From the sequence record PV660463: a DNA stretch of 64,000 nucleotides; one strand, given 5' to 3'. The position numbers were made by a program, and so were the translations under genes. This DNA comes from Escherichia phage LF82-41. Shown one piece after another: positions 1,273-64,000 of this stretch; within the stretch, counting starts at the first letter, position 1; every line of letters begins with the position of its first letter. The notes beneath the pieces were generated by a model. The model did no database searches. It worked only from the letters and a program-made list of their open reading frames with translations, and was not told where the DNA came from.

Positions 1273-1638
1273 TTAGATATCAAATTCGTTAAGAACTACA
1301 TCAAAGATTGCTTCGAGATGTTCAGGTTTAGCTCGGTTACTCAGGATATGACGAATCCAAGTTTTAACCAGAAGTTTACGATTAACACCATTCCAGCAAG
1401 GATGAGTACCTAAATCACGCTGACGGAAATCATCATCTAATGCAATTTTAAAATTTGAACCTTCCATCGTGATTGAAACCGTGATGCCATTTTCAAATCG
1501 CATATAAACGTAATTAGGAGTCATGCACTGTTCGATTTCACATACTGAACCATTTTTATGTTTCCATAAGCAAATAACTTCAGAAGAACCAGCGATACCG
1601 TTAGAAACATATTTGCGTTCGAAGTTGATGTAGTTCAT
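1273..1638 (-). CDS. hypothetical protein (121 aa)
   Basis: ORF track; shares a CMTP motif with neighbouring 122-aa ORF (possible paralogs). Confidence 0.5.
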   Translation of the reverse strand: MNYINFERKYVSNGIAGSSEVICLWKHKNGSVCEIEQCMTPNYVYMRFENGITVSITMEGSNFKIALDDDFRQRDLGTHPCWNGVNRKLLVKTWIRHILSNRAKPEHLEAIFDVVLNEFDI

Positions 1639-1674
1639 TTTATTCTCCAGATGTTTAAGTTGTTTATTGGTACA

Positions 1675-1708
1675 GGTCTATAATAACATAACCTGTACCA
1701 AAGTAAAC
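1675..1708 (-). promoter_or_regulatory. early-type promoter
   Basis: rc: GTTTAC-N17-TATTAT followed by AGACCT. Confidence 0.5.
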
Positions 1709-1712
1709 TGTT

Positions 1713-2081
1713 TTATGCAACTTTAATCCAATTGTCTAAATTTAAAACACCTTTGGCTTTCATTTTTTCGATCAGGTTATCTGCTGTAATGCGTCCATTT
1801 TGATACCATGTAACATCTTCAGAGTAACCAGTTTCTTCGTCAACATATGTTTCTGAACGAATTTTACCGGTAATAATAGTTTTTAATTCGTACGTGTCAC
1901 CTGTGAAAAAGTTTGCTAACACAATTTTCCAAGAGAAATCATCAGAAGGACCTTCAGGGGTCATACAACCTACGAACTCAAATTGCTCTTTGTATAACAT
2001 CCACTGGAATTCTTTAATTTCGATAGCTTTATAACCGTCGTGGTCTTTACATTTGATGTATGAGTTCAGATTGATTTTCAT
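1713..2081 (-). CDS. hypothetical protein (122 aa)
   Basis: ORF track; early-type promoter at 2118-2151. Confidence 0.5.
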   Translation of the reverse strand: MKINLNSYIKCKDHDGYKAIEIKEFQWMLYKEQFEFVGCMTPEGPSDDFSWKIVLANFFTGDTYELKTIITGKIRSETYVDEETGYSEDVTWYQNGRITADNLIEKMKAKGVLNLDNWIKVA

Positions 2082-2117
2082 TTTATTCTCCGGTTGTTTT
2101 ATTGATTAGGTGGTACA

Positions 2118-2151
2118 AGTCTATAGTAACACATCCTACAGGAGAGTAAAC
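2118..2151 (-). promoter_or_regulatory. early-type promoter
   Basis: rc: GTTTAC-N17-TACTAT; upstream of ORF starting at 2081. Confidence 0.5.
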
Positions 2152-2188
2152 ATCTTTTTTAAACTTTTTCTGCCCTAAACGCACAAAA

Positions 2189-2206
2189 GGGAGACCGAAG
2201 TCTCCC
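2189..2206 (-). terminator. UUCG-tetraloop hairpin / putative intrinsic terminator
   Basis: rc GGGAGAC-UUCG-GUCUCCC followed by UUUUG. Confidence 0.5.
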
Positions 2207-2211
2207 TAAAA

Positions 2212-2391
2212 TTATGCAACAACCTTTCCAAAACGAGAAGCATCATCTCGAAGAACTGCACGTGCTCTGCGCATGATCTTCTCAACTGTTTGATTAATAC
2301 GAGAGTTCGACCCACGCTTGTATCCAGCGCGTTTAGAGGTACCATCAACTTTCTTTTCAACTGCTTTCTTTGCTTTAGCTTGTTTTGCCAT
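2212..2391 (-). CDS. small basic protein (59 aa, MAKQAKAKKAVEKK...)
   Basis: My own translation (below 60-aa cutoff of track); ATG at 2391, TAA at 2212-2214, followed by GGGAGAC-UUCG-GUCUCCC hairpin; competes with track ORF 2175-2360 in another frame. Confidence 0.35.
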   Translation of the reverse strand: MAKQAKAKKAVEKKVDGTSKRAGYKRGSNSRINQTVEKIMRRARAVLRDDASRFGKVVA

Positions 2392-2554
2392 TATAAATTC
2401 TCTTTAAATGAAAATGCAGGACTTATTGACATTGCCTGCGCAAGCCCTCAAGGGGAACATAGGTTTTGGGTATTTAACGACAGGATAACCATAAACCCGT
2501 CATCATACCTACCATGACTTACACAGCTAACCTTTTGCTGACGCATGATAGCAA

Positions 2555-2803
2555 TTATTTCAAAGTAATAACAAAATGACGAACTGCTTTGCGTGCTGCA
2601 GAAGCCAGAGGCTTAGCATATTTCAATTCATCTTTAGCTTCCAGTTCAGCAGCCAGAGTAGCCTGAGCAGGATTCAGATGTTTGAAATAACGCAGAATTT
2701 CCAGTGCTTCGGCTTCAACATCAATTGACGCACCGTAGTTTTCGTGACCGTTATTCCATGCGTTGCGTTGCAGTTCAAGAGCGTGTTGTAATTGTTTAAT
2801 CAT
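2555..2803 (-). CDS. rIII: rIII lysis-inhibition accessory protein
   Basis: 82 aa, same length as T4 rIII; position next to gene 31; sequence recalled as rIII-like. Confidence 0.8.
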   Translation of the reverse strand: MIKQLQHALELQRNAWNNGHENYGASIDVEAEALEILRYFKHLNPAQATLAAELEAKDELKYAKPLASAARKAVRHFVITLK

Positions 2804-2927
2804 TTTAAATTCTCAATTCGAGATAATATTTAGTAGCCACGTTCGTCTGAATTTCACCTTCTTTCGACAAGTCTCTCAGTTGTAGGCTACCGCTTAGAAG
2901 AGTGTTCTCTTCATATAGTTATTTATA

Positions 2928-3260
2928 TCACTTATAAAGACACGGAATAGCTTTATAGTGGCATGTTACGAATTTCTGTTTAATTTCTTTAGGTTGTTTA
3001 AGTCCCAAAGCCACAAATGGATGTGGAACATTTCGAATTTGTCCAACTGGTAGTGGAGTCAAATCACCGACTTCAACAAAACCTTCAGGAACATCAGGAC
3101 CTACAGAATGAACTACACATAGTTCAGGAACTTCACCTTGAACACGTTTACCAATCACAAGTCCTGATTCGGTAACTTCTTCATCACCTGCTTGAGCGGG
3201 TTCAGAAACCAGAATGACATATTCACCAACAGCACGAATTGGGAGTTGTACTTCAGACAT
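2928..3260 (-). CDS. 31: gp31 co-chaperonin (GroES analogue for capsid folding)
   Basis: 110 aa; N-terminus [20 protein letters not shown] matches T4 gp31 as recalled; synteny rIII-31-cd. Confidence 0.9.
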
Positions 3261-3317
3261 CTTATTTCCTTGTTGTTTGACGATAGATTAATAATACCAT
3301 ACTATTCGTAAAGCATA

Positions 3318-3626
3318 TTACATAAGAAGCAAACGTTCTACCGGAGTACCATCAACCGAAATTACTTTATCAAGGCGGAAAGAACGCCACTGACCTAACT
3401 TGGTATCAAATGCTCGAACTGATTCACGAGGTTCAGAACGAACTTCTGTTGCCGGATTGTTATTTTCATATTTGACTTCAAGTTCATCGCGGGAGGCAAA
3501 CATAGTGCGTACCTCGCCGTTAGCCTTTTCAAATACAACACAATGAACGCCTACAGACAGAATAGTTTTAATACGTTCACGAAGAACCATAGTTTCTTGT
3601 TCAGTTAAAATCATATTATTCACCAC
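3318..3626 (-). CDS. hypothetical protein (102 aa, 31.x-like)
   Basis: ORF track; between 31 and cd. Confidence 0.5.
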   Translation of the reverse strand: MVNNMILTEQETMVLRERIKTILSVGVHCVVFEKANGEVRTMFASRDELEVKYENNNPATEVRSEPRESVRAFDTKLGQWRSFRLDKVISVDGTPVERLLLM

Positions 3627-4197
3627 AAAAGTTTCGGATTTGTTCCCAATTCAGAGAACGAAGATTATTACGAGAGTACTGAATTACTTCAATACCAGCT
3701 TGTTTAAGAATGTCTGCCCAGTTTTCAGGAGATCGGTCATATAATTCTGCATATACAACCTTTTTAATACCTGACTGCGTAATAGCTTTAGTACAATCAG
3801 GACATGGAGAAAGCGTCGTATATAACGTAGCACCTTCAATAGAATTACCTTTACGAGCGGCAAACAAAATTGCATTCAATTCTGCATGGATTTCATTATT
3901 AGCAGACCATGCACTATGAGCAGCTCGATGTTCTTTGGCTAAAACAAAATTATCTACCCGTCCAAATGCTGTAGTGCCTTCTTTATGTCCAGCAACGATG
4001 ACTGGGATTGGTTTATTCTTCAACCAACCATTTTCAGATGCATGTTCGCAACAGTTAACGCCACCTGCAGGTGAACCGTTATATCCAGTAGAAATAATGC
4101 GTCCATCTTTTTCAATGACGGCACCAACTTTCCATGAACAACATTTTGATTCTTGAGAAATCAGATATGCAATCTGAAGGTATGTGCTAGCTTTCAT
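3616..4197 (-). CDS. cd: dCMP deaminase
   Basis: 193 aa; zinc-deaminase motifs HAELNAI and SPCPDCTKAI; synteny. Confidence 0.93.
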   Translation of the reverse strand: MKASTYLQIAYLISQESKCCSWKVGAVIEKDGRIISTGYNGSPAGGVNCCEHASENGWLKNKPIPVIVAGHKEGTTAFGRVDNFVLAKEHRAAHSAWSANNEIHAELNAILFAARKGNSIEGATLYTTLSPCPDCTKAITQSGIKKVVYAELYDRSPENWADILKQAGIEVIQYSRNNLRSLNWEQIRNFCGE

Positions 4198-5189
4198 TAT
4201 TGAACCTTATTAATATAAGTTAACAGCTCTTTAGTTTGTTCCCAACTGATGCACGCATCGGTAACGGAAACGCCATAGGACATATTATCAGAAATTTTTT
4301 GATTTCCTTCATGTAGGAACGATTCTATCATAATTCCTTTGACCAAATCATTAGCTGCTAAATTTTTACCAATACCAATTTGATTGCTATAATGCCCATC
4401 AGCGTTTGCATGGCTACAGTCAACCATTACATAATGATTCAGACCTACTGCCCTTGCTTTGTTAGAAGCTTCTTGAATATCAGAAGAATGATAGTTCGGG
4501 CCGTTGGTCCCGCCACGCAATACGATATGCGTATTCTGATTACCTTCAGCTTCAACAATGCCTACAGTACCATCGACGTCCATACCCATATACCGATGAG
4601 GCCAGGCGGCACTATACATCGCGTCTGTAGCTACTTTAATAGAACCATTGGTTGCGTTCTTGAAGCCTACGCACATCGGTAGACCTGAAGCAATTTCACG
4701 ATGTGTCTGACTTTCAGTCGTACGGGCGCCAATAGCAACCCATGAGAAAATACCAGAAAGATACTTAATCGTGAATGGGTCTAATACTTCAGTTGCTAAT
4801 GGAAGTCCCATACGTAGAAGTTTACGACACAATGTTCGTGCAACTATAAGACCGTGGTTCATATCAAAACTTCCGTCAAGATATGGATCATTTACAAGAC
4901 CTTTCCAACCTACGGTAGTTCGAGGCTTTTCAAAATAAACGCGCATCACTAACAGAACATTAGGAAGACGAGTTTGAAGTTCAGCCAGACGTTTGCCGTA
5001 TTCAACAGCAGCAATAGGGTCATGAATTGAACAAGGACCTACAACAATAAGTTTGCGTGGGTCTTCACCGTTCATAATCGAATTAACTTGTTCGCGATGA
5101 GAAGCCACTTGTGATGCGTAAGCTTCCGACAAAGGAATAATCTCAGCCAGTTCTTTTGGAGAAATAAGTTTTCCGACGACAGGTAACAT
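4197..5189 (-). CDS. 3-deoxy-D-arabino-heptulosonate-7-phosphate (DAHP) synthase, class I (AroG/AroF-like)
   Basis: 330 aa; motifs GPCSIHD, RVYFEKPRTTVGWKGL, GARTTESQ, CSHAN, EGNQ, TDACISW align with E. coli AroG catalytic residues; RBS AAGGA; stop overlaps cd start by 1 nt. Confidence 0.85.
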   Translation of the reverse strand: MLPVVGKLISPKELAEIIPLSEAYASQVASHREQVNSIMNGEDPRKLIVVGPCSIHDPIAAVEYGKRLAELQTRLPNVLLVMRVYFEKPRTTVGWKGLVNDPYLDGSFDMNHGLIVARTLCRKLLRMGLPLATEVLDPFTIKYLSGIFSWVAIGARTTESQTHREIASGLPMCVGFKNATNGSIKVATDAMYSAAWPHRYMGMDVDGTVGIVEAEGNQNTHIVLRGGTNGPNYHSSDIQEASNKARAVGLNHYVMVDCSHANADGHYSNQIGIGKNLAANDLVKGIMIESFLHEGNQKISDNMSYGVSVTDACISWEQTKELLTYINKVQ

Positions 5190-5309
5190 AACAATCCTTA
5201 GGAGATATAAACAGATTCTGATTCAACAATACCTTTAACCGGATTAGACAGGCTAAGTTGGTAGTGCTCAGATTTATGACCATTCTCGATAGTAATGAGA
5301 TAGCTCTCA

Positions 5310-5546
5310 TTATAGTGTTCCATATACTCGAGTTGCTTCAACAAGACCATCACTGCCTAATTTAAGGCTAGTAATCTGGTCACCATCTTTAGGATTAACG
5401 ATTATGAGAAAAGAACGTGGAGATTCTTGAATAACTCGTAATGTTGCATCCTGGAAACGTTCAGACACTTTATTGATGAGTGCTTGAGCAAATTCTTTTA
5501 CTTTAATCTGAAATTCGTGTACTGTAATTGGGGTTTCACTTAGCAT
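5310..5546 (-). CDS. hypothetical protein (78 aa)
   Basis: ORF track. Confidence 0.4.
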   Translation of the reverse strand: MLSETPITVHEFQIKVKEFAQALINKVSERFQDATLRVIQESPRSFLIIVNPKDGDQITSLKLGSDGLVEATRVYGTL

Positions 5547-5607
5547 TTCGATTTCCTCATTGTGTTGGTAGAGTTATAGTATCACAACTCCACCATGTTG
5601 TAAACCA

Positions 5608-5883
5608 TTAAATTGCTTTGCATTCAATTTTTTGTGTACCGAAATTGATATCACATTGGATAACTAAATCGCCGTCAAGATCAAATACCACTATGACGTG
5701 TGCAGACCCAGGGAGAAGAGTAATAGCAATAGAATCTACTTGGTCTGGGAGTAAAGCATTGAGTACATGAGTTAGTTGAGCATGAACTCTGAGTTCGGCT
5801 GCATTATCAAGCACTTCAAACATATTATTAGCAATAATCTGACTGAAGACTACCTTTACAATTTCAGAATAAGTTGGGAACAT
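5608..5883 (-). CDS. hypothetical protein (91 aa)
   Basis: ORF track. Confidence 0.4.
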   Translation of the reverse strand: MFPTYSEIVKVVFSQIIANNMFEVLDNAAELRVHAQLTHVLNALLPDQVDSIAITLLPGSAHVIVVFDLDGDLVIQCDINFGTQKIECKAI

Positions 5884-5890
5884 AATTACC

Positions 5891-6115
5891 TCAGTGCACA
5901 GTATTTACTTTAACTCGAACAACAAATCGCTCGGTTGGTTCACCTACAGGAACAAACTCTACATGATATTCGCCTTTGTATCGAGTATTCAGGTCATTAC
6001 GAATTCCTGCGAGTTTGTTGATTAATGTAGGACTCATATTAAGTCCCACTAGTTTACGAAGCATTTTGTATGCTTCATCTTCGATTTCATGATGTTTATC
6101 GTACATAGTTTTCAT
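5891..6115 (-). CDS. hypothetical protein (74 aa)
   Basis: ORF track. Confidence 0.4.
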   Translation of the reverse strand: MKTMYDKHHEIEDEAYKMLRKLVGLNMSPTLINKLAGIRNDLNTRYKGEYHVEFVPVGEPTERFVVRVKVNTVH

Positions 6116-6286
6116 TTAACCATTCAATTGCCTGGTCGACGTTATCAAATATGCCACCGTCCAAACGTTCTTCATGCTCATAGTTCAGCACATCAATACC
6201 GAACTGTCCATTTACTAAAGGCCAGGCAACAAACAAATATTCTTTATGCCGTTCAATGGCCTCAATCACTTCATATAATCGTTTCA

Positions 6287-6287
<1 letters not shown>
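6096..6287 (-). CDS. hypothetical protein (63 aa)
   Basis: ORF track; abuts pseT. Confidence 0.35.
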
Positions 6288-7373
<1,086 letters not shown>

Positions 7374-8236: not shown

Positions 8237-8589
8237 TCTGAGAGCTTCCTGAGGTCTTCTGCAAAGGAATCGAAGGACCTGTTGATTTGTTTTTCGACCA
8301 ATCCTGGCTTACTTGCCACCACGTTCTTCTTCTTCGAATCCTTACGGAGCTTTTCATTTTCGGCCTTAAGTTGGTCAACTAAAACACGGTTCTTATAAGT
8401 CATTTCTTCGATTGACTGATATTGAACTTTGAAGTCGTCTAATACTTTAGCATTGTTTTTAGCAGCCTCTTTAACAGAAGCTAATTCAGTATTCAACGAA
8501 TCAACTTTGTTGTTTAAGACAACTATTGTTACCGTAGAAACTAGAGCAAAAGCTGCTACTATAACATAAATCGGATTTACTTTAAGCAT
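8233..8589 (-). CDS. membrane-anchored coiled-coil protein (118 aa)
   Basis: N-terminal hydrophobic helix then charged heptad-like sequence. Confidence 0.45.
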   Translation of the reverse strand: MLKVNPIYVIVAAFALVSTVTIVVLNNKVDSLNTELASVKEAAKNNAKVLDDFKVQYQSIEEMTYKNRVLVDQLKAENEKLRKDSKKKNVVASKPGLVEKQINRSFDSFAEDLRKLSE

Positions 8590-62933: not shown

Positions 62934-63482
62934 TTAACGAGCCCATTTAATGATTTCTGTAATCAAATTATTACGTTCGCTTGCATTAAATCCTATAACT
63001 TTGTTAGAACCATCATGATTAAGTAATTGATACGTTTGGATTTTGTTATGAATTGCAAACTCTTCAAAATGTGAAATGACTGTATTAAAACCGAATGAAG
63101 ACAAAGTAATAAGGTCGTCTTCAAAACTTTCAGTCATTTCGTTACGTGTTAAAATAATTGTGAACACATCATGGTTTTGGCAAAGACGAACATAATCCTG
63201 TTCATAAACGTCAAGAACCGAGTCCGCATCTTGTCGAATACGTCCATAAACCCAGTTACTAATATATCCACGGTCTAATAGATAAATCTTAGTAGGGTCT
63301 AAATAATTCAACATCGTTTCGAAACAGCCAACTTCATTTCGAGACTTAACATCGAAACGCCCATCAACTGTTCGTTTAGGGAAATCAATCTTTACATATC
63401 TTTCACTAATTTCCATTATGTCATTAATGAAAGTTGTTTTACCAGCATTATCCGGCCCGTCTACTAAAATAATTTTAGCCAT
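62934..63482 (-). CDS. thymidylate-kinase-like P-loop (d)NMP kinase
   Basis: 182 aa; P-loop LVDGPDNAGKTT (cf. TMK IEGLEGAGKTT) and LDRGYISNWVYG (cf. TMK DRH..S..AYQG); occupies position of T4 beta-gt. Confidence 0.6.
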   Translation of the reverse strand: MAKIILVDGPDNAGKTTFINDIMEISERYVKIDFPKRTVDGRFDVKSRNEVGCFETMLNYLDPTKIYLLDRGYISNWVYGRIRQDADSVLDVYEQDYVRLCQNHDVFTIILTRNEMTESFEDDLITLSSFGFNTVISHFEEFAIHNKIQTYQLLNHDGSNKVIGFNASERNNLITEIIKWAR

Positions 63483-63483
63483 T

Positions 63484-64000
63484 TTATTCCTCGATTACGA
63501 CATCTTCGTATTTAGGTATATTATACGGCGAAGAAATTAAAGCATTAAAGTAGATGAACTCACCAAGACCTGGATGGAATACTTCTTCAGGATTTTCGAA
63601 ATATTGAATCTTCGGACGTCCTTTAAGAATTTGATAGTACTCAGTTTTAGTTGGATTAAAAATTCGAATCAGCGCTTCTTCAGGATACTTATTTCTGTCG
63701 AAACTATTATTTGGATCAGTTATATAAAGCGGTTGACCTAATTGAATTGCGCATTCAACAACTTGTTCAAAACGATAGCATGGGTCACTAATTCGAAATG
63801 GATGAAAAATACCATCTAGATGAATAGGAGCCAAATCACCTACAAGACGCTGCATGACGGAAGGACGTATAACTTTCTGCGTTACGATAATCTTATTACC
63901 ATCTGCACCTGCGTTAACCAGCACTTCTTTTTGACGTTCATTCAACACAGTAGTTTGAAGTGAACGATTAACAGACAACATGTCGGTTTTTAAGAATTCA
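63484..64000 (-). CDS. hypothetical protein, 5' end probably beyond window
   Basis: Frame stays open upstream of the track start at 63981 to the window edge with no SD; no recognisable family; not dCMP hydroxymethylase-like. Confidence 0.45.
   Translation of the reverse strand, partial: EFLKTDMLSVNRSLQTTVLNERQKEVLVNAGADGNKIIVTQKVIRPSVMQRLVGDLAPIHLDGIFHPFRISDPCYRFEQVVECAIQLGQPLYITDPNNSFDRNKYPEEALIRIFNPTKTEYYQILKGRPKIQYFENPEEVFHPGLGEFIYFNALISSPYNIPKYEDVVIEE

Follow-up and report, generated by a model that had tools for sequence, protein, structure and literature searches.

A DAHP synthase gene with a rebuilt inhibitor site in T4-like phages and its possible role in prephenate supply for 5-hydroxycytosine

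The window considered here is the whole analyzed stretch of 64,000 nucleotides of Escherichia phage LF82-41 (sequence record PV660463), which is 99.5% identical to Mosigvirus genomes. Within it, a gene for DAHP synthase (DAHPS) is located between pseT and cd (Table 1), in an early nucleotide-metabolism region that also includes td and frd at a distance of about 10 kb. Variable small ORFs occupy the pseT-cd interval in all T4-like phages compared; in T4 nothing but cd.1-cd.5 separates cd from pseT, as an earlier note on this DNA had stated in assigning small cd.x ORFs to T4.

Table 1. Features of the window referred to in the text, in order of position.
Feature	Positions	Strand	Basis
cd (dCMP deaminase of 193 aa), whose start codon overlaps with the stop of DAHPS	3616..4197	-	ORF, Pfam
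Imperfect direct repeat of 19 bp, right copy, ATAATGAAAGCTAGCACAT; DAHPS stop, cd start and first cd codons	4182..4200	-	
DAHPS, CDS of 330 aa, type I-alpha, phage clade	4197..5189	-	ORF, profile matches, alignment, predicted structure
Segment of 1,094 bp (remnant and DAHPS) absent in RB69	4201..5294		blastn vs RB69
Spacer of 120 nt 5' of DAHPS; what remains of a Kanagawa/Marfa-type cd.2 (3' half)	5190..5309	-	
Shine-Dalgarno sequence TAAGGA, 5 nt 5' of the DAHPS ATG; overlaps the stop of the remnant frame	5195..5200	-	sequence
Left copy of the 19-bp repeat, ATAATGAGAGCTATCTCAT, 16/19 identical; cd.2 stop (TAATG) and remnant start	5295..5313	-	
cd.2 homologue, DUF7320, 78 aa; 5' of the inserted segment	5310..5546	-	Pfam, comparison
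Early-promoter-like TTTACA-17-TACTAT (with TG), between cd.3 and cd.2	5576..5604	-	positional homology only
pseT, polynucleotide kinase/phosphatase; upstream boundary of the conserved pseT...DAHPS...cd interval	6287..7186	-	
Start of the arabosyl-5-hydroxycytosine gene cluster: nucleotide kinase (62934..63482) and start of a glycosyltransferase	62934..64000	-	

The DAHPS ORF begins with ATG and its translation contains the motifs GPCSIHD, KPRTTVGWKGL, GARTTESQ, CSHAN, EGNQ, and TDACISW. It matches PF00793 (Pfam, E = 5e-75), the NCBIfam models TIGR00034 for aroFGH (427.7 bits, cut-off 173.2) and NF009395 (455.1 bits, cut-off 343), and E. coli AroF (PDB 6agm, E = 5e-105); judged by these scores, the family assignment is far beyond chance. 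The NCBIfam models specific for AroG (363, cut-off 568) and AroH (386, cut-off 463) are not reached, and identity to the E. coli isozymes amounts to 51% for AroF, 47% for AroG and 43% for AroH. The earlier note's description of a complete class-I enzyme of 330 aa is thus confirmed, all six motifs and the catalytic residues having been found, and the AroG/AroF type of family stands as well, but the nearest isozyme is AroF and not the AroG that had been used for reference. Both termini are slightly shortened relative to AroG, as had been observed, the total difference of 20 aa being made up of 8 N-terminal residues, about 5 C-terminal residues and two internal loop deletions.

An AlphaFold model of the protein (pLDDT 90.2, pTM 0.91) superimposes on solved type I-alpha enzymes (Neisseria meningitidis DAHPS, E. 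coli AroG) with TM values of 0.94–0.95 and an rmsd of 1.6–1.7 Å, and keeps the predicted (beta/alpha)8 barrel with the beta6a/6b hairpin (strands 198–203 and 209–214). The metal ligands C53, H260, E289, and D311 (Cys61, His268, Glu302, and Asp326 of AroG) are invariant in the 10 aligned sequences, and the degeneration of the metal site that had been named as a possible objection is not seen. All PEP residues (R83, K88, G154, A155, R156, K177, and R225) and the KPRTT motif for erythrose-4-phosphate (E4P) at residues 88–92 are invariant too. The phage protein is very probably a DAHP synthase in activity (PEP + E4P to DAHP + Pi), as predicted from these residues and the profile scores.

Comparison of the window with RB69 by blastn shows collinear sequence (96–98% identity) on both sides of a clean gap, at which exactly the 1,094 bp with DAHPS and the cd.2 remnant, bordered by the two 19-bp repeat copies, are missing. 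The remnant reads SYLITIENGHKSEHYQLSLSNPVKGIVESESVYIS up to its stop codon in a frame without a real start and matches positions 43–76 of Pfam DUF7320; it is 51% identical over 39 aa to CIP9_041 (E = 4e-7) and 55% identical over 33 aa to PWKp18_177, while identity to the cd.2 of Mosigvirus is only 26%. The overlap of the DAHPS stop with the cd start was correctly described: the plus strand reads CATTA at 4195–4199, that is, TAATG on the coding strand, and one base is common to the DAHPS stop (4199–4197) and the cd start (4197–4195). However, because the cd.2-cd junction of RB69 shows the same TAATG without a DAHPS gene, the overlap belongs to the insertion site, and since RB69 does without the gene, DAHPS is dispensable; the argument that translational coupling sets it apart from a passenger does not hold. 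According to the annotation of the region, no homing endonuclease is attached to DAHPS in Mosigvirus. DAHPS is an accessory gene, and recombination within the pseT-cd interval moves it from one T4-like phage to another. A scan for promoters and terminators gave no enrichment over shuffled sequences, and only the site at the position equivalent to the T4 early promoter Pe133295 was retained; by this positional correspondence it is the likely source of a transcript covering cd.2, DAHPS, and cd.

About 200 T4-like genomes in the databases, from at least seven lineages, carry the gene, which is usually annotated; they include about 139 of about 150 Mosigvirus records. In the T4-like phage records that carry it, its position is always between pseT and cd. 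Host labels are Escherichia (124), Klebsiella (25), Shigella (12), Proteus (7), Serratia (6), Enterobacter (4), Edwardsiella (3), and Providencia (3). The copies of phiC120, an O157 typing phage and LF82 phages are 99–100% identical to the window protein, and all phage copies (212/212) are full length and in one piece. In the phylogenetic tree the phage enzymes form a single clade (bootstrap 100/100), alone on a long branch; no bacterial protein more than 55% identical to phage DAHPS was found in 5.8 billion sequences and none more than 51% identical among 1.84 billion representatives. GC3 is 30%, a phage-like value, vs. 50–57% in E. coli aroF/G/H. Recent capture from a host or an identifiable donor was rejected on the basis of the missing close bacterial match, the long isolated branch and the phage-like GC3, and the search for a donor lineage by phylogeny that the earlier note had recommended ended without one. 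A fecal contig labeled "Bacteriophage sp." that carries DAHPS was set aside as a bacterial-looking fragment.

Between genera dN/dS is about 0.15–0.3, and the identity of DAHPS is intermediate between those of cd and pseT. With its location in a phage genome, purifying selection and absence from RB69, the gene has the properties of a phage auxiliary metabolic gene (AMG), yet hardly of an unusual one, as had been claimed: besides its occurrence in some 200 genomes, the DAHPS of Kanagawavirus KLB31 was already called an AMG in 2025 (PMC11845039) and the same gene was discussed as ORF64 of phiC120 (PMC8022965). No functional study of phage DAHPS was found in the literature, in which recent papers were covered in part. 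The gene itself is not new; the proposed link of its distribution to prephenate supply is unreported in the literature covered. Only the first of the seven shikimate steps is encoded by the phage, so that pre-existing host enzymes have to supply the rest, and no other shikimate gene is annotated in the region of phiC120 equivalent to the window. In Aeromonas phage HJ05, which represents an independent DAHPS lineage, no U32 or chorismate mutase gene occurs within 9 kb.

The regulatory part of the enzyme has been altered in the entire phage clade, which lacks 8–10 N-terminal residues including the equivalents of AroG D6/D7. In AroG, residues D6, D7, and I10 are presumably Phe contacts, and alongside them stand the AroF variants with N8K or N-terminal deletions. 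Six changes are fixed in the clade (P150I, Q151K, D155G, L175I, S180P, and F209Y in AroG numbering), at an inhibitor site where P-Q-D-S is kept in 85 of 96 bacterial homologues, although these positions also often vary in distant family members whose regulation is uncharacterized. The main chain of the inhibitor is bound by Q151/Q152 and S180/S181, and the AroG variants P150L, S180F, L175D, and F209A are feedback-resistant (PMC9529685). Because the N-terminus is short and the fixed changes affect positions tied to feedback resistance, phage DAHPS has probably lost its inhibition by Phe, Tyr, and Trp; the earlier suggestion that shortening may alter feedback regulation agrees with this residue-level reading, which adds the inhibitor-site changes to the N-terminal loss. 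For resistance caused by N-terminal truncation alone, no direct evidence beyond one title was found in the literature. Four of the 11 non-synonymous polymorphisms of DAHPS fall within residues 2–6. Members of the clade share only 55–77% identity overall, but the block DPFTIKYLSGIFSW...ASGLPM does not vary, and such invariance of the remodeled site across genera agrees better with a new function than with mere loss. In the host, aromatic amino acids act on the DAHPS isozymes both through feedback inhibition and through repression (PMC11802643).

Among T4-like phages, DAHPS occurs only in lineages encoding a U32 protein (gp50 of RB69), often beside chorismate mutase and 5-hydroxy-dCMP (5hodCMP) synthase. 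RB69 gp50 and its Entb_45 homologue match PF01136 (U32) with E = 7e-11 and 2.7e-11, respectively, and in the lineage of the window the genes for 5hodCMP synthase and U32 lie just past the window end, the latter about 1 kb beyond. phiC120 and a further 220 records carry the gp50-type U32 gene, with host counts of 136, 26, 14, 7, 7, 4, 3, and 3 in the same order of hosts as for DAHPS (Escherichia to Providencia), which parallel the DAHPS counts. This co-occurrence was read from counts of organism labels and a sample of rows instead of being scored genome by genome, and it is confounded by shared T4-like ancestry. A chorismate mutase of the AroQ type (PF01817, E = 2.4e-10; PDB 1ybz, E = 3.5e-8) is encoded between U32 and 5hodCMP synthase in 51 records of at least eight lineages. 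In Mosigvirus an unrelated 79-aa ORF occupies this position; RB69p049 was considered as a chorismate mutase and rejected, as it has neither a Pfam or NCBIfam match nor similarity to the Entb_45 enzyme, and Mosigvirus is therefore taken to lack this mutase. Besides this lack in Mosigvirus, two further cases speak against strict linkage of the three genes: RB69 has U32 and no DAHPS, and Yersinia phage phiR1-RT encodes U32 and chorismate mutase without DAHPS. RB69 still makes 5-hydroxycytosine (5hoC) aerobically; the one phage 5hodCMP synthase known so far requires flavin and O2, and gp50 carries no assigned role (PMC13326640).

Outside the T4-like group, an unrelated metagenomic phage of 80 kb (L031) encodes the regulator-less core of a type I-beta DAHPS 58 nt downstream of a gp50-like U32 gene. 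In all seven metagenomic contexts examined the gp50-like gene was part of a DNA-replication or nucleotide module, while DAHPS was nearby in only this one. Other U32 proteins depend on prephenate: UbiU/UbiV need it as the oxygen source in anaerobic ubiquinone hydroxylation (PMC10990095), and RlhA is required for 5-hydroxycytidine in rRNA, a modification that needs prephenate (PMC5727448). The identity of gp50 to RlhA, UbiU, and UbiV is 15–20%, and the alignment of its cysteines with those of UbiU is weak for this reason: C196/C212 of gp50 correspond to C169/C193 of UbiU, one of the four cluster cysteines of UbiU is unaligned, the position of C176 being a Gly with other cysteines nearby, and gp50 has an additional C-terminal CX4CX3CX2C motif.

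As U32 enzymes are tied to O2-independent, prephenate-dependent hydroxylation, it is proposed that phage DAHPS may feed prephenate to an anaerobic route to 5hoC. According to this proposal, cd.2, DAHPS and cd would be transcribed together early, and an active phage DAHPS would convert PEP and E4P to DAHP; with its rebuilt inhibitor site it would drive carbon into the shikimate pathway of the host regardless of feedback inhibition and repression of the host's own AroG/F/H. The host enzymes AroB to AroC would then yield chorismate, to be turned into prephenate by chorismate mutase, phage-encoded in many relatives and supplied by host PheA/TyrA in Mosigvirus. Prephenate would be the oxygen donor consumed one-for-one by the phage U32 protein (the homologue of RB69 gp50), which, encoded beside 5hodCMP synthase, could open an O2-independent route to the 5hoC that replaces cytosine, formed either as a nucleotide or in DNA. 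At 37.8% GC, a genome of about 169 kb comes to about 64,000 cytosines, and about 6 million prephenate molecules would thus be consumed for a burst of 100. By analogy with the known U32 systems, supply of prephenate for U32-dependent anaerobic 5hoC, rather than bulk provision of aromatic amino acids, may be the purpose of DAHPS, a view adopted here tentatively as the likeliest of those considered. The more specific claim that a virus-encoded prephenate line, composed of deregulated DAHPS and in most relatives an AroQ mutase, feeds gp50 as an Fe-S hydroxylase generating 5hoC without O2 is possible but more doubtful.

Other explanations have to be weighed against this proposal. The hypothesis published for Kanagawavirus KLB31 (PMC11845039) makes DAHPS a generic AMG that sustains aromatic amino acids, or folate, quinones and enterobactin, after host shut-off; it is in accordance with an intact enzyme under purifying selection, with the proximity of td and frd in the early nucleotide-metabolism region and with the expectation that a deregulated entry enzyme would raise all chorismate-derived products. 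Supply of aromatic amino acid, folate or quinone precursors, which the earlier note had also put forward, is thus possible, but it leaves the confinement to phages encoding gp50-U32 unexplained, and T4 and the Acinetobacter T4-likes lack the gene despite having the same protein and folate needs. Folate demand should even be greater in hmC phages (T4, without the gene) than in 5hoC phages with a flavin-based hydroxylase, RB69 grows without DAHPS, and a separate, monofunctional chorismate mutase, to which neither a dehydratase nor a dehydrogenase is joined, suggests that prephenate itself is the product of interest, so that this explanation appears rather unlikely. Less likely still is a conversion of the inhibitor site into one for novel regulation or protein binding, at which another effector or a phage or host partner would control the enzyme instead of its being unregulated, a possibility compatible with either purpose of the enzyme. 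The invariance of the DPFTIKYLSGIFSW...ASGLPM block in so divergent a clade would suit such a site, as would the retention in the model of the beta6a/6b hairpin of the regulatory element; however, replacement has affected precisely the residues that contact the backbone of the amino acid, the conserved block also adjoins catalytic loops, and no candidate ligand or partner is known.

A role of DAHPS as a carbon-flux valve, by which consumption of E4P and PEP pulls transketolase flux to pentose phosphates and UDP-arabinose or a drain on PEP stops host functions, is improbable. These phages do divert ribulose-5-P to UDP-arabinofuranose, and arabinose-5-P isomerase also occurs in most DAHPS-positive lineages, but removal of E4P lowers the pentose yield per hexose by pathway reasoning and the two distributions differ: 57 Acinetobacter records with the isomerase and the arabinose pathway are without DAHPS, and Klebsiella Marfavirus has DAHPS and no isomerase among the sampled matches. 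For the same partial match, arabinosylation was rejected as the primary link of DAHPS, and the published UDP-arabinofuranose route of these phages requires no DAHPS step. That the gene is a neutral or selfish passenger of a hyperplastic region, of no benefit to the phage, is very improbable; its absence from RB69, the short repeats and the foreign cd.2 remnant that mark its insertion, and the variable small ORFs that fill the interval are what would be expected of a passenger, whereas the intactness of every copy, the low dN/dS across genera, the invariant catalytic residues, the use of one locus in at least seven lineages and in most Mosigvirus records, and the lack of a homing endonuclease in Mosigvirus are not. 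Hardly credible is an aldolase repurposed for another sugar phosphate, e.g., arabinose-5-P to give KDO8P or another ulosonate: KDO8P synthase does belong to the same Pfam family and the phages make arabinose-5-P, yet KPRTT and every contact to E4P and PEP are invariant and as in DAHPS, the aroFGH equivalog is matched at 2.5 times its cut-off, and KdsA models are absent among the NCBIfam matches at E ≤ 0.001. A KDO8P-synthase-like function was rejected on these grounds, and the KPRT motif, the model scores and a UDP-arabinose route that needs no such enzyme likewise contradict the idea that DAHPS feeds a sugar-acid precursor pathway.

As a gene, DAHPS is ordinary and already annotated. What gives the phage clade its interest is an apparently natural feedback-desensitized enzyme, changed at positions that metabolic engineers have mutated, which makes it a candidate for the production of aromatic compounds and a natural experiment in allostery. 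Returning to prephenate supply, the confinement of DAHPS to gp50-U32 lineages, the adjacent chorismate mutase and the convergent U32-DAHPS pair offer a testable answer to how 5hoC might be formed without oxygen and what gp50 may do. If correct, enteric T4-like phages would build arabinosyl-5-hydroxycytosine genomes in the anoxic, amino-acid-rich gut by a route that works where the flavin/O2 synthase cannot and where host DAHPS is switched off. It would be the first viral prephenate/U32 chemistry and the first tie of U32 chemistry to DNA modification; phage fitness and the state of DNA modification would depend on host shikimate flux and oxygen, with implications for the selection of therapeutic Mosigvirus phages, for how restriction is evaded in the gut and for how widely prephenate serves as an oxygen donor in biology.

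Compared with known systems, phage DAHPS shares with E. coli AroF/AroG/AroH the family, fold, Cys-His-Glu-Asp metal site, PEP residues, KPRT motif and beta6a/6b hairpin, and differs from them in the missing first 8–10 residues, two shorter loops, the virus-encoded gene with its phage-like GC3 and, relative to AroG, in having I, K, G, I, P, and Y at positions 150, 151, 155, 175, 180, and 209. Engineered resistant enzymes (the four AroG variants cited above, AroF P148L, and N-terminal-domain engineering) have natural counterparts in the phage clade, which is substituted at four such positions and has a shortened N-terminus; its replacements are different (I, K, P, Y), combined and evolutionarily fixed, and the resistance is one predicted from sequence. 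The DAHPS of other T4-like phages (KLB31, phiC120 ORF64) belongs to the same clade and pseT-cd locus with no difference at the gene level, and the reports on them (PMC11845039, PMC8022965) analyze neither residues nor distribution and do not connect the gene with U32, chorismate mutase or prephenate. Phage L031, whose DAHPS lacks a regulatory element, resembles the phage of the window in combining a phage-encoded DAHPS, a gp50-like U32 and sugar-nucleotide genes in one genome, but its DAHPS is of subclass I-beta, has 248 aa, occurs in a phage with a DnaE-type polymerase and adjoins U32, which is about 60 kb away here. The logic proposed for gp50, in which the shikimate pathway delivers prephenate to an O2-independent hydroxylation by a U32 Fe-S protein, would be that of UbiU/UbiV, RlhA, and TrhP; RlhA acts at C5 of cytidine, as gp50 may on cytosine, and, as for ubiquinone, two parallel routes would exist, one aerobic and flavin-based, the other anaerobic and U32-based. 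In contrast to these systems, the entry enzyme and often the chorismate mutase are virus-encoded, and gp50, a distant member of U32, would presumably act on DNA or a DNA precursor instead of RNA or a quinone.

The 330-aa product of the ORF between pseT and cd matches Pfam DAHP_synth_1 (E=5e-75) and exceeds the cut-offs of the NCBIfam aroFGH equivalog (427.7 bits; cut-off 173) and NF009395 (455 bits; cut-off 343), and no KDO8P-synthase models were among its NCBIfam matches. An AlphaFold model built with 70 homologues as input (pLDDT 90, pTM 0.91) resembles solved type I-alpha enzymes with TM 0.94–0.95 and rmsd 1.6–1.7 Å. In a residue alignment with E. coli AroG, AroF and AroH and six phage orthologues, the metal ligands C53, H260, E289 and D311 (AroG C61, H268, E302, D326), the PEP-binding residues R83, K88, G154, A155, R156, K177 and R225 and the KPRTT motif are invariant. 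An earlier note had quoted six motifs, all of which occur in the translation, and its reading of a complete class-I DAHP synthase (DAHPS) is borne out by the family models, the fold model and the invariant catalytic residues; the protein is very probably an active enzyme. The likeness to AroG stated there holds for the enzyme family, but AroF is closer (51% identity, against 47% for AroG and 43% for AroH) and is also the top relative of solved structure (E=5e-105).

Features at the DAHPS locus (window positions)
Feature	Position	Strand	Remark
DAHPS ORF	4197..5189	-	330 codons, ATG start
DAHPS ribosome-binding site TAAGGA	5 nt upstream of ATG	-	read from sequence
Early-promoter-like site TTTACA-17-TACTAT	5604-5576	-	between cd.3 and cd.2
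19-bp imperfect direct repeats	4182-4200 and 5295-5313		16/19 identical; bound the 1,094-bp segment
120-nt spacer upstream of DAHPS	5190-5309	-	remnant, 3' half of Kanagawa/Marfa-type cd.2

The gene itself is already known. The Mosigvirus genomes phiC120, ATK47, CAU_ECP01 and phiEC1 share 99.5% identity with the region, and the phiC120 genome paper notes the DAHPS domain in passing (PMC8022965). A tblastn search retrieved 212 phage records, all full length and 139 of them at least 95% identical to the window protein, most being annotated as phospho-2-dehydro-3-deoxyheptonate aldolase, aroF or DAHP synthase, so that the description of the gene as unusual was overstated. No functional study of a phage DAHPS was found in the literature. 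With its rebuilt regulatory site, however, the phage clade stands out as a distinct variant of the enzyme.

Phage DAHPS N-termini begin 8–10 residues later than bacterial ones, with 9–11 residues ahead of AroG V20 where bacteria have 17–22 or more; an upstream stop sets the start, and the short N-terminus is common to every genus. At AroG positions 150, 151, 155 and 180 the phage clade carries I-K-G-P, whereas 85 of 96 bacterial homologues (48–55% identity) carry P-Q-D-S, and L156I, L/M175I, F209Y and T223A are likewise fixed. In AroG, P150L confers full feedback resistance and S180F, L175D and F209A/S confer resistance as well, Q151/Q152 and S180/S181 hold the inhibitor main chain and D155 makes a stabilising salt bridge (PMC9529685). 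The window protein lies under the NCBIfam cut-offs of the AroG- and AroH-specific models. The importance of the N-terminal arm for inhibition rests partly on the AroG-Phe structure. The proposal that a shortened terminus may alter feedback is thus strengthened by the short N-terminus and the fixed inhibitor-site changes, and the phage enzyme is probably freed of feedback by aromatic amino acids, although the same positions vary in more distant members of the DAHPS family. Among six Mosigvirus alleles, 4 of the 11 non-synonymous polymorphisms fall in residues 2–6, a cluster that fits an N-terminal stub without function. A further caveat to the loss of feedback is that the rebuilt inhibitor-site segment does not vary between phage genera, which speaks for a new role more than for decay.

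In a neighbour-joining tree the 25 phage-type sequences group together (bootstrap 100/100); the branch leading to them is long and no bacterial sequence is their specific sister. Protein database searches found no bacterial protein with more than 55% identity to the window DAHPS. Its GC3 (30%) is like that of adjacent phage genes, compared with 50–57% in E. coli aroF/G/H. The interval from pseT to cd holds the gene, always in one orientation, in seven lineages with names (Mosigvirus, Marfavirus, Bragavirus, Winklervirus, Kanagawavirus, Kagamiyamavirus and Providencia phages) and in one metagenomic T4-like contig. Protein identity between genera (55–77%) falls between those of cd (64–86%) and pseT (42–85%), and dN is 0.18–0.44 with dS saturated (dN/dS roughly 0.15–0.3); together with the constant locus, these values indicate that T4-like phages have carried the gene for a long time and that purifying selection acts on it. 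Aeromonas phage HJ05 (79 kb, non-T4; 3899-5546 of its locus) has a separate, distant DAHPS (38% identity, 387 aa) adjoining genes for a methyltransferase and for an anti-defence sponge of the Acb2/Tad1 type, with no U32 or chorismate mutase gene within 9 kb. In MT837410, a contig filed as 'Bacteriophage sp.', DAHPS and AroD occur together with an ABC transporter and a MarR regulator, and the contig looks like a bacterial fragment. Some long homologues, including the 799-aa representative P0121, contain two DAHPS stretches or are fusions of 600–800 aa.

T4, as the earlier note stated, lacks DAHPS here, having cd.1–cd.5 alone between cd and pseT. It has an annotated early promoter in a position matching the promoter-like site of the window, and a scan found no terminator-like site between cd.2, DAHPS and cd; from positional homology, DAHPS would be co-transcribed early with cd. 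The DAHPS stop and the start of cd, the dCMP deaminase gene downstream (3616..4197), have one base in common within TAATG (coding strand 4199-4195). This overlap had been taken as a sign of operon integration, which goes too far: RB69, the type Mosigvirus, lacks DAHPS and keeps TAATG at cd.2/cd, so the overlap belongs to that junction. The window and RB69 are collinear at 96–98% identity, bar a clean 1,094-bp segment at 4201..5294 that RB69 lacks (RB69 site, 8237-8255 of its locus), and both repeat copies contain TAATG. The spacer remnant is 51% identical to CIP9_041 over 39 aa (E=4e-7) and only 26% identical to Mosigvirus cd.2, and it is a footprint of transfer between T4-like phages. This foreign remnant and the repeat-bounded segment indicate that Mosigvirus gained a 3' cd.2–DAHPS–5' cd segment from another T4-like lineage by recombination, DAHPS being accessory and mobile in T4-like phages. 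Since DAHPS is present in most Mosigvirus-type records (about 139 of roughly 150), secondary deletion between the repeats is the simpler reading of the RB69 state.

Among six Mosigvirus genomes, synonymous variation is about ten-fold lower in DAHPS (9/227 sites) than in cd (49/130) and pseT (69/186). Nucleotide diversity is 0.000–0.023 over the DAHPS/cd.2 tract (4256-5555) and 0.03–0.16 in the flanks (3656-4255 and 5656-7155; cd, cd.3, pseT). As other low-diversity tracts exist, this is only suggestive of a recent spread of one allele. Hypervariable patches (nucleotide diversity 0.11–0.17) occur among similar genomes at 6456-6555, 5656-5855 (cd.3) and 2497-2756, the first corresponding to pseT residues ~217–240 and looking like a swapped segment. 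Annotation errors also occur: in phi25-307, HX01 and JK45 cd is named 'ribD riboflavin biosynthesis protein', cd.2 'olfactory receptor-like protein' and the gp31.1 homologue 'tail fibers protein', some records annotate a spurious 50-aa ORF in the spacer (JK45 gp197), and JK45 is filed as Tequatrovirus while being Mosigvirus-like at this locus.

With regard to the purpose of the enzyme, a tie to DNA arabinose modification fits poorly. The published route runs from ribulose-5-P through arabinose-5-P to UDP-arabinofuranose and does not need DAHPS (PMC13326640), and the distributions disagree: of the 269 records with an arabinose-5-P isomerase gene, 57 are Acinetobacter phages without DAHPS, and no Klebsiella phages were seen among the 269, though Marfavirus carries DAHPS. 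The distribution of another gene of that cluster, gp50, which encodes the peptidase U32 family protein of RB69 (PF01136, E=7e-11; 221 records in all), is a good fit. Counts by organism label (gp50/DAHPS records) are Escherichia 136/124, Klebsiella 26/25, Shigella 14/12, Serratia 7/6, Proteus 7/7, Enterobacter 4/4, Providencia 3/3 and Edwardsiella 3/3; the co-occurrence, read from these counts and from sampled rows, is confounded by shared ancestry. Under Acinetobacter no gp50 is listed, and the DAHPS records come from a single set, 'Acinetobacter phage MD-2021a' (4 contigs), whose proteins (45–48% identity) fall outside the phage clade. Every DAHPS-positive T4-like lineage checked has gp50. 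A genuine AroQ chorismate mutase gene (PF01817, E=2.4e-10, above cut-off; PDB 1ybz, E=3.5e-8) lies between gp50 and the gene of the thymidylate-synthase-like 5-hydroxy-dCMP (5hodCMP) synthase in 51 records from at least eight lineages, for example in Enterobacter phage Entb_45 (5001-7104 of its locus). In Mosigvirus its slot holds an unrelated 79-aa ORF (RB69p049; RB69 locus 1498-3662). The window ends within the arabinosyl-5-hydroxycytosine cluster (62934-64000, minus strand: a nucleotide kinase gene followed by the beginning of one for a glycosyltransferase), with the 5hodCMP synthase and U32 genes just past its end. Across genera gp50 is 76–87% identical, more conserved than cd, pseT or DAHPS.

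Many metagenomic gp50 homologues exist (48–58% identity), and in all 7 contexts examined they lie in replication or nucleotide modules of unrelated phages, with neighbours including DnaE-type polymerase, dCMP deaminase, dUTPase, ThyX, kinase-like and UDG-like proteins and glycosyltransferases; this recurrence hints that DNA modifications linked to U32 are a wider family. Across six of these contexts (L029, L030, L032–L035) the neighbours also include radical SAM enzymes and UDP-galactopyranose mutase, one contig being 466 kb long. In the remaining one, an 80-kb contig with a DnaE-type polymerase (Logan SRR13394437_29825; L031 8001-9891), a DAHPS gene lies 58 nt downstream of the U32 gene. It encodes a 248-aa type I-beta catalytic core without regulatory domain (NF006421, E=2.6e-70, model positions 95–327 of 338; KDO8PS models only E=3e-17), and SIS-domain and choline-kinase-like genes adjoin the pair. 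That another DAHPS subclass, likewise stripped of regulation, stands next to the same U32 in an unrelated phage speaks, by convergence, for the two being functionally linked.

The genomic company of DAHPS points to a testable, apparently unreported mechanism, in which a deregulated phage DAHPS and an unregulated chorismate mutase would supply prephenate to the phage U32 protein. The need would be about 64,000 molecules per genome copy, as estimated from a GC content of 37.8% and a genome length of about 169 kb. The gut is a setting rich in aromatic amino acids. Where these are plentiful, the DAHPS isozymes of the host are under feedback inhibition and their transcription is repressed (PMC11802643). 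Prephenate supply is tentatively proposed as the purpose of DAHPS, at somewhat under an even chance. Strict linkage is opposed by RB69 (U32 without DAHPS), Yersinia phiR1-RT (U32 and chorismate mutase without DAHPS), the unrelated ORF at the chorismate mutase position in Mosigvirus, and the presence of DAHPS in only 1 of the 7 metagenomic contexts. The more specific version, a U32/prephenate route to anaerobic 5-hydroxycytosine, is possible, with rather lower odds. These phages have arabinosylated 5-hydroxycytosine in place of cytosine, and the sole synthase known for that base is flavin- and O2-dependent; the paper on that enzyme assigns no role to gp50 and is silent on prephenate, chorismate and U32 (PMC13326640). 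Generic aromatic or cofactor supply, the purpose put forward in the earlier note, is in keeping with a 2025 paper that treats the Klebsiella phage KLB31 orthologue as an auxiliary metabolic gene serving aromatic amino acids (PMC11845039); it is an unlikely reading and only one of several, and a new effector site, a carbon-flux valve, a neutral passenger and an altered substrate are less likely still.

The prephenate proposal has counterparts among cellular U32 proteins. UbiU/V require prephenate, which gives oxygen in anaerobic ubiquinone hydroxylation; the family is linked to prephenate-dependent, O2-independent hydroxylation, with direct hydroxylase activity yet to be demonstrated for any member, and the proposed mechanism uses one prephenate per hydroxyl (PMC10990095). 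RlhA is required for 5-hydroxycytidine in 23S rRNA, a modification that depends on the aro pathway, chorismate mutase activity and Fe-S clusters (PMC5727448), and TrhP is likewise linked to tRNA 5-hydroxyuridine (PMC6599085). With only 15–20% identity to RlhA and UbiU/V, and a cysteine motif partly aligned in a weak alignment, gp50 is a distant member of the same U32 family, which weighs against the proposal.
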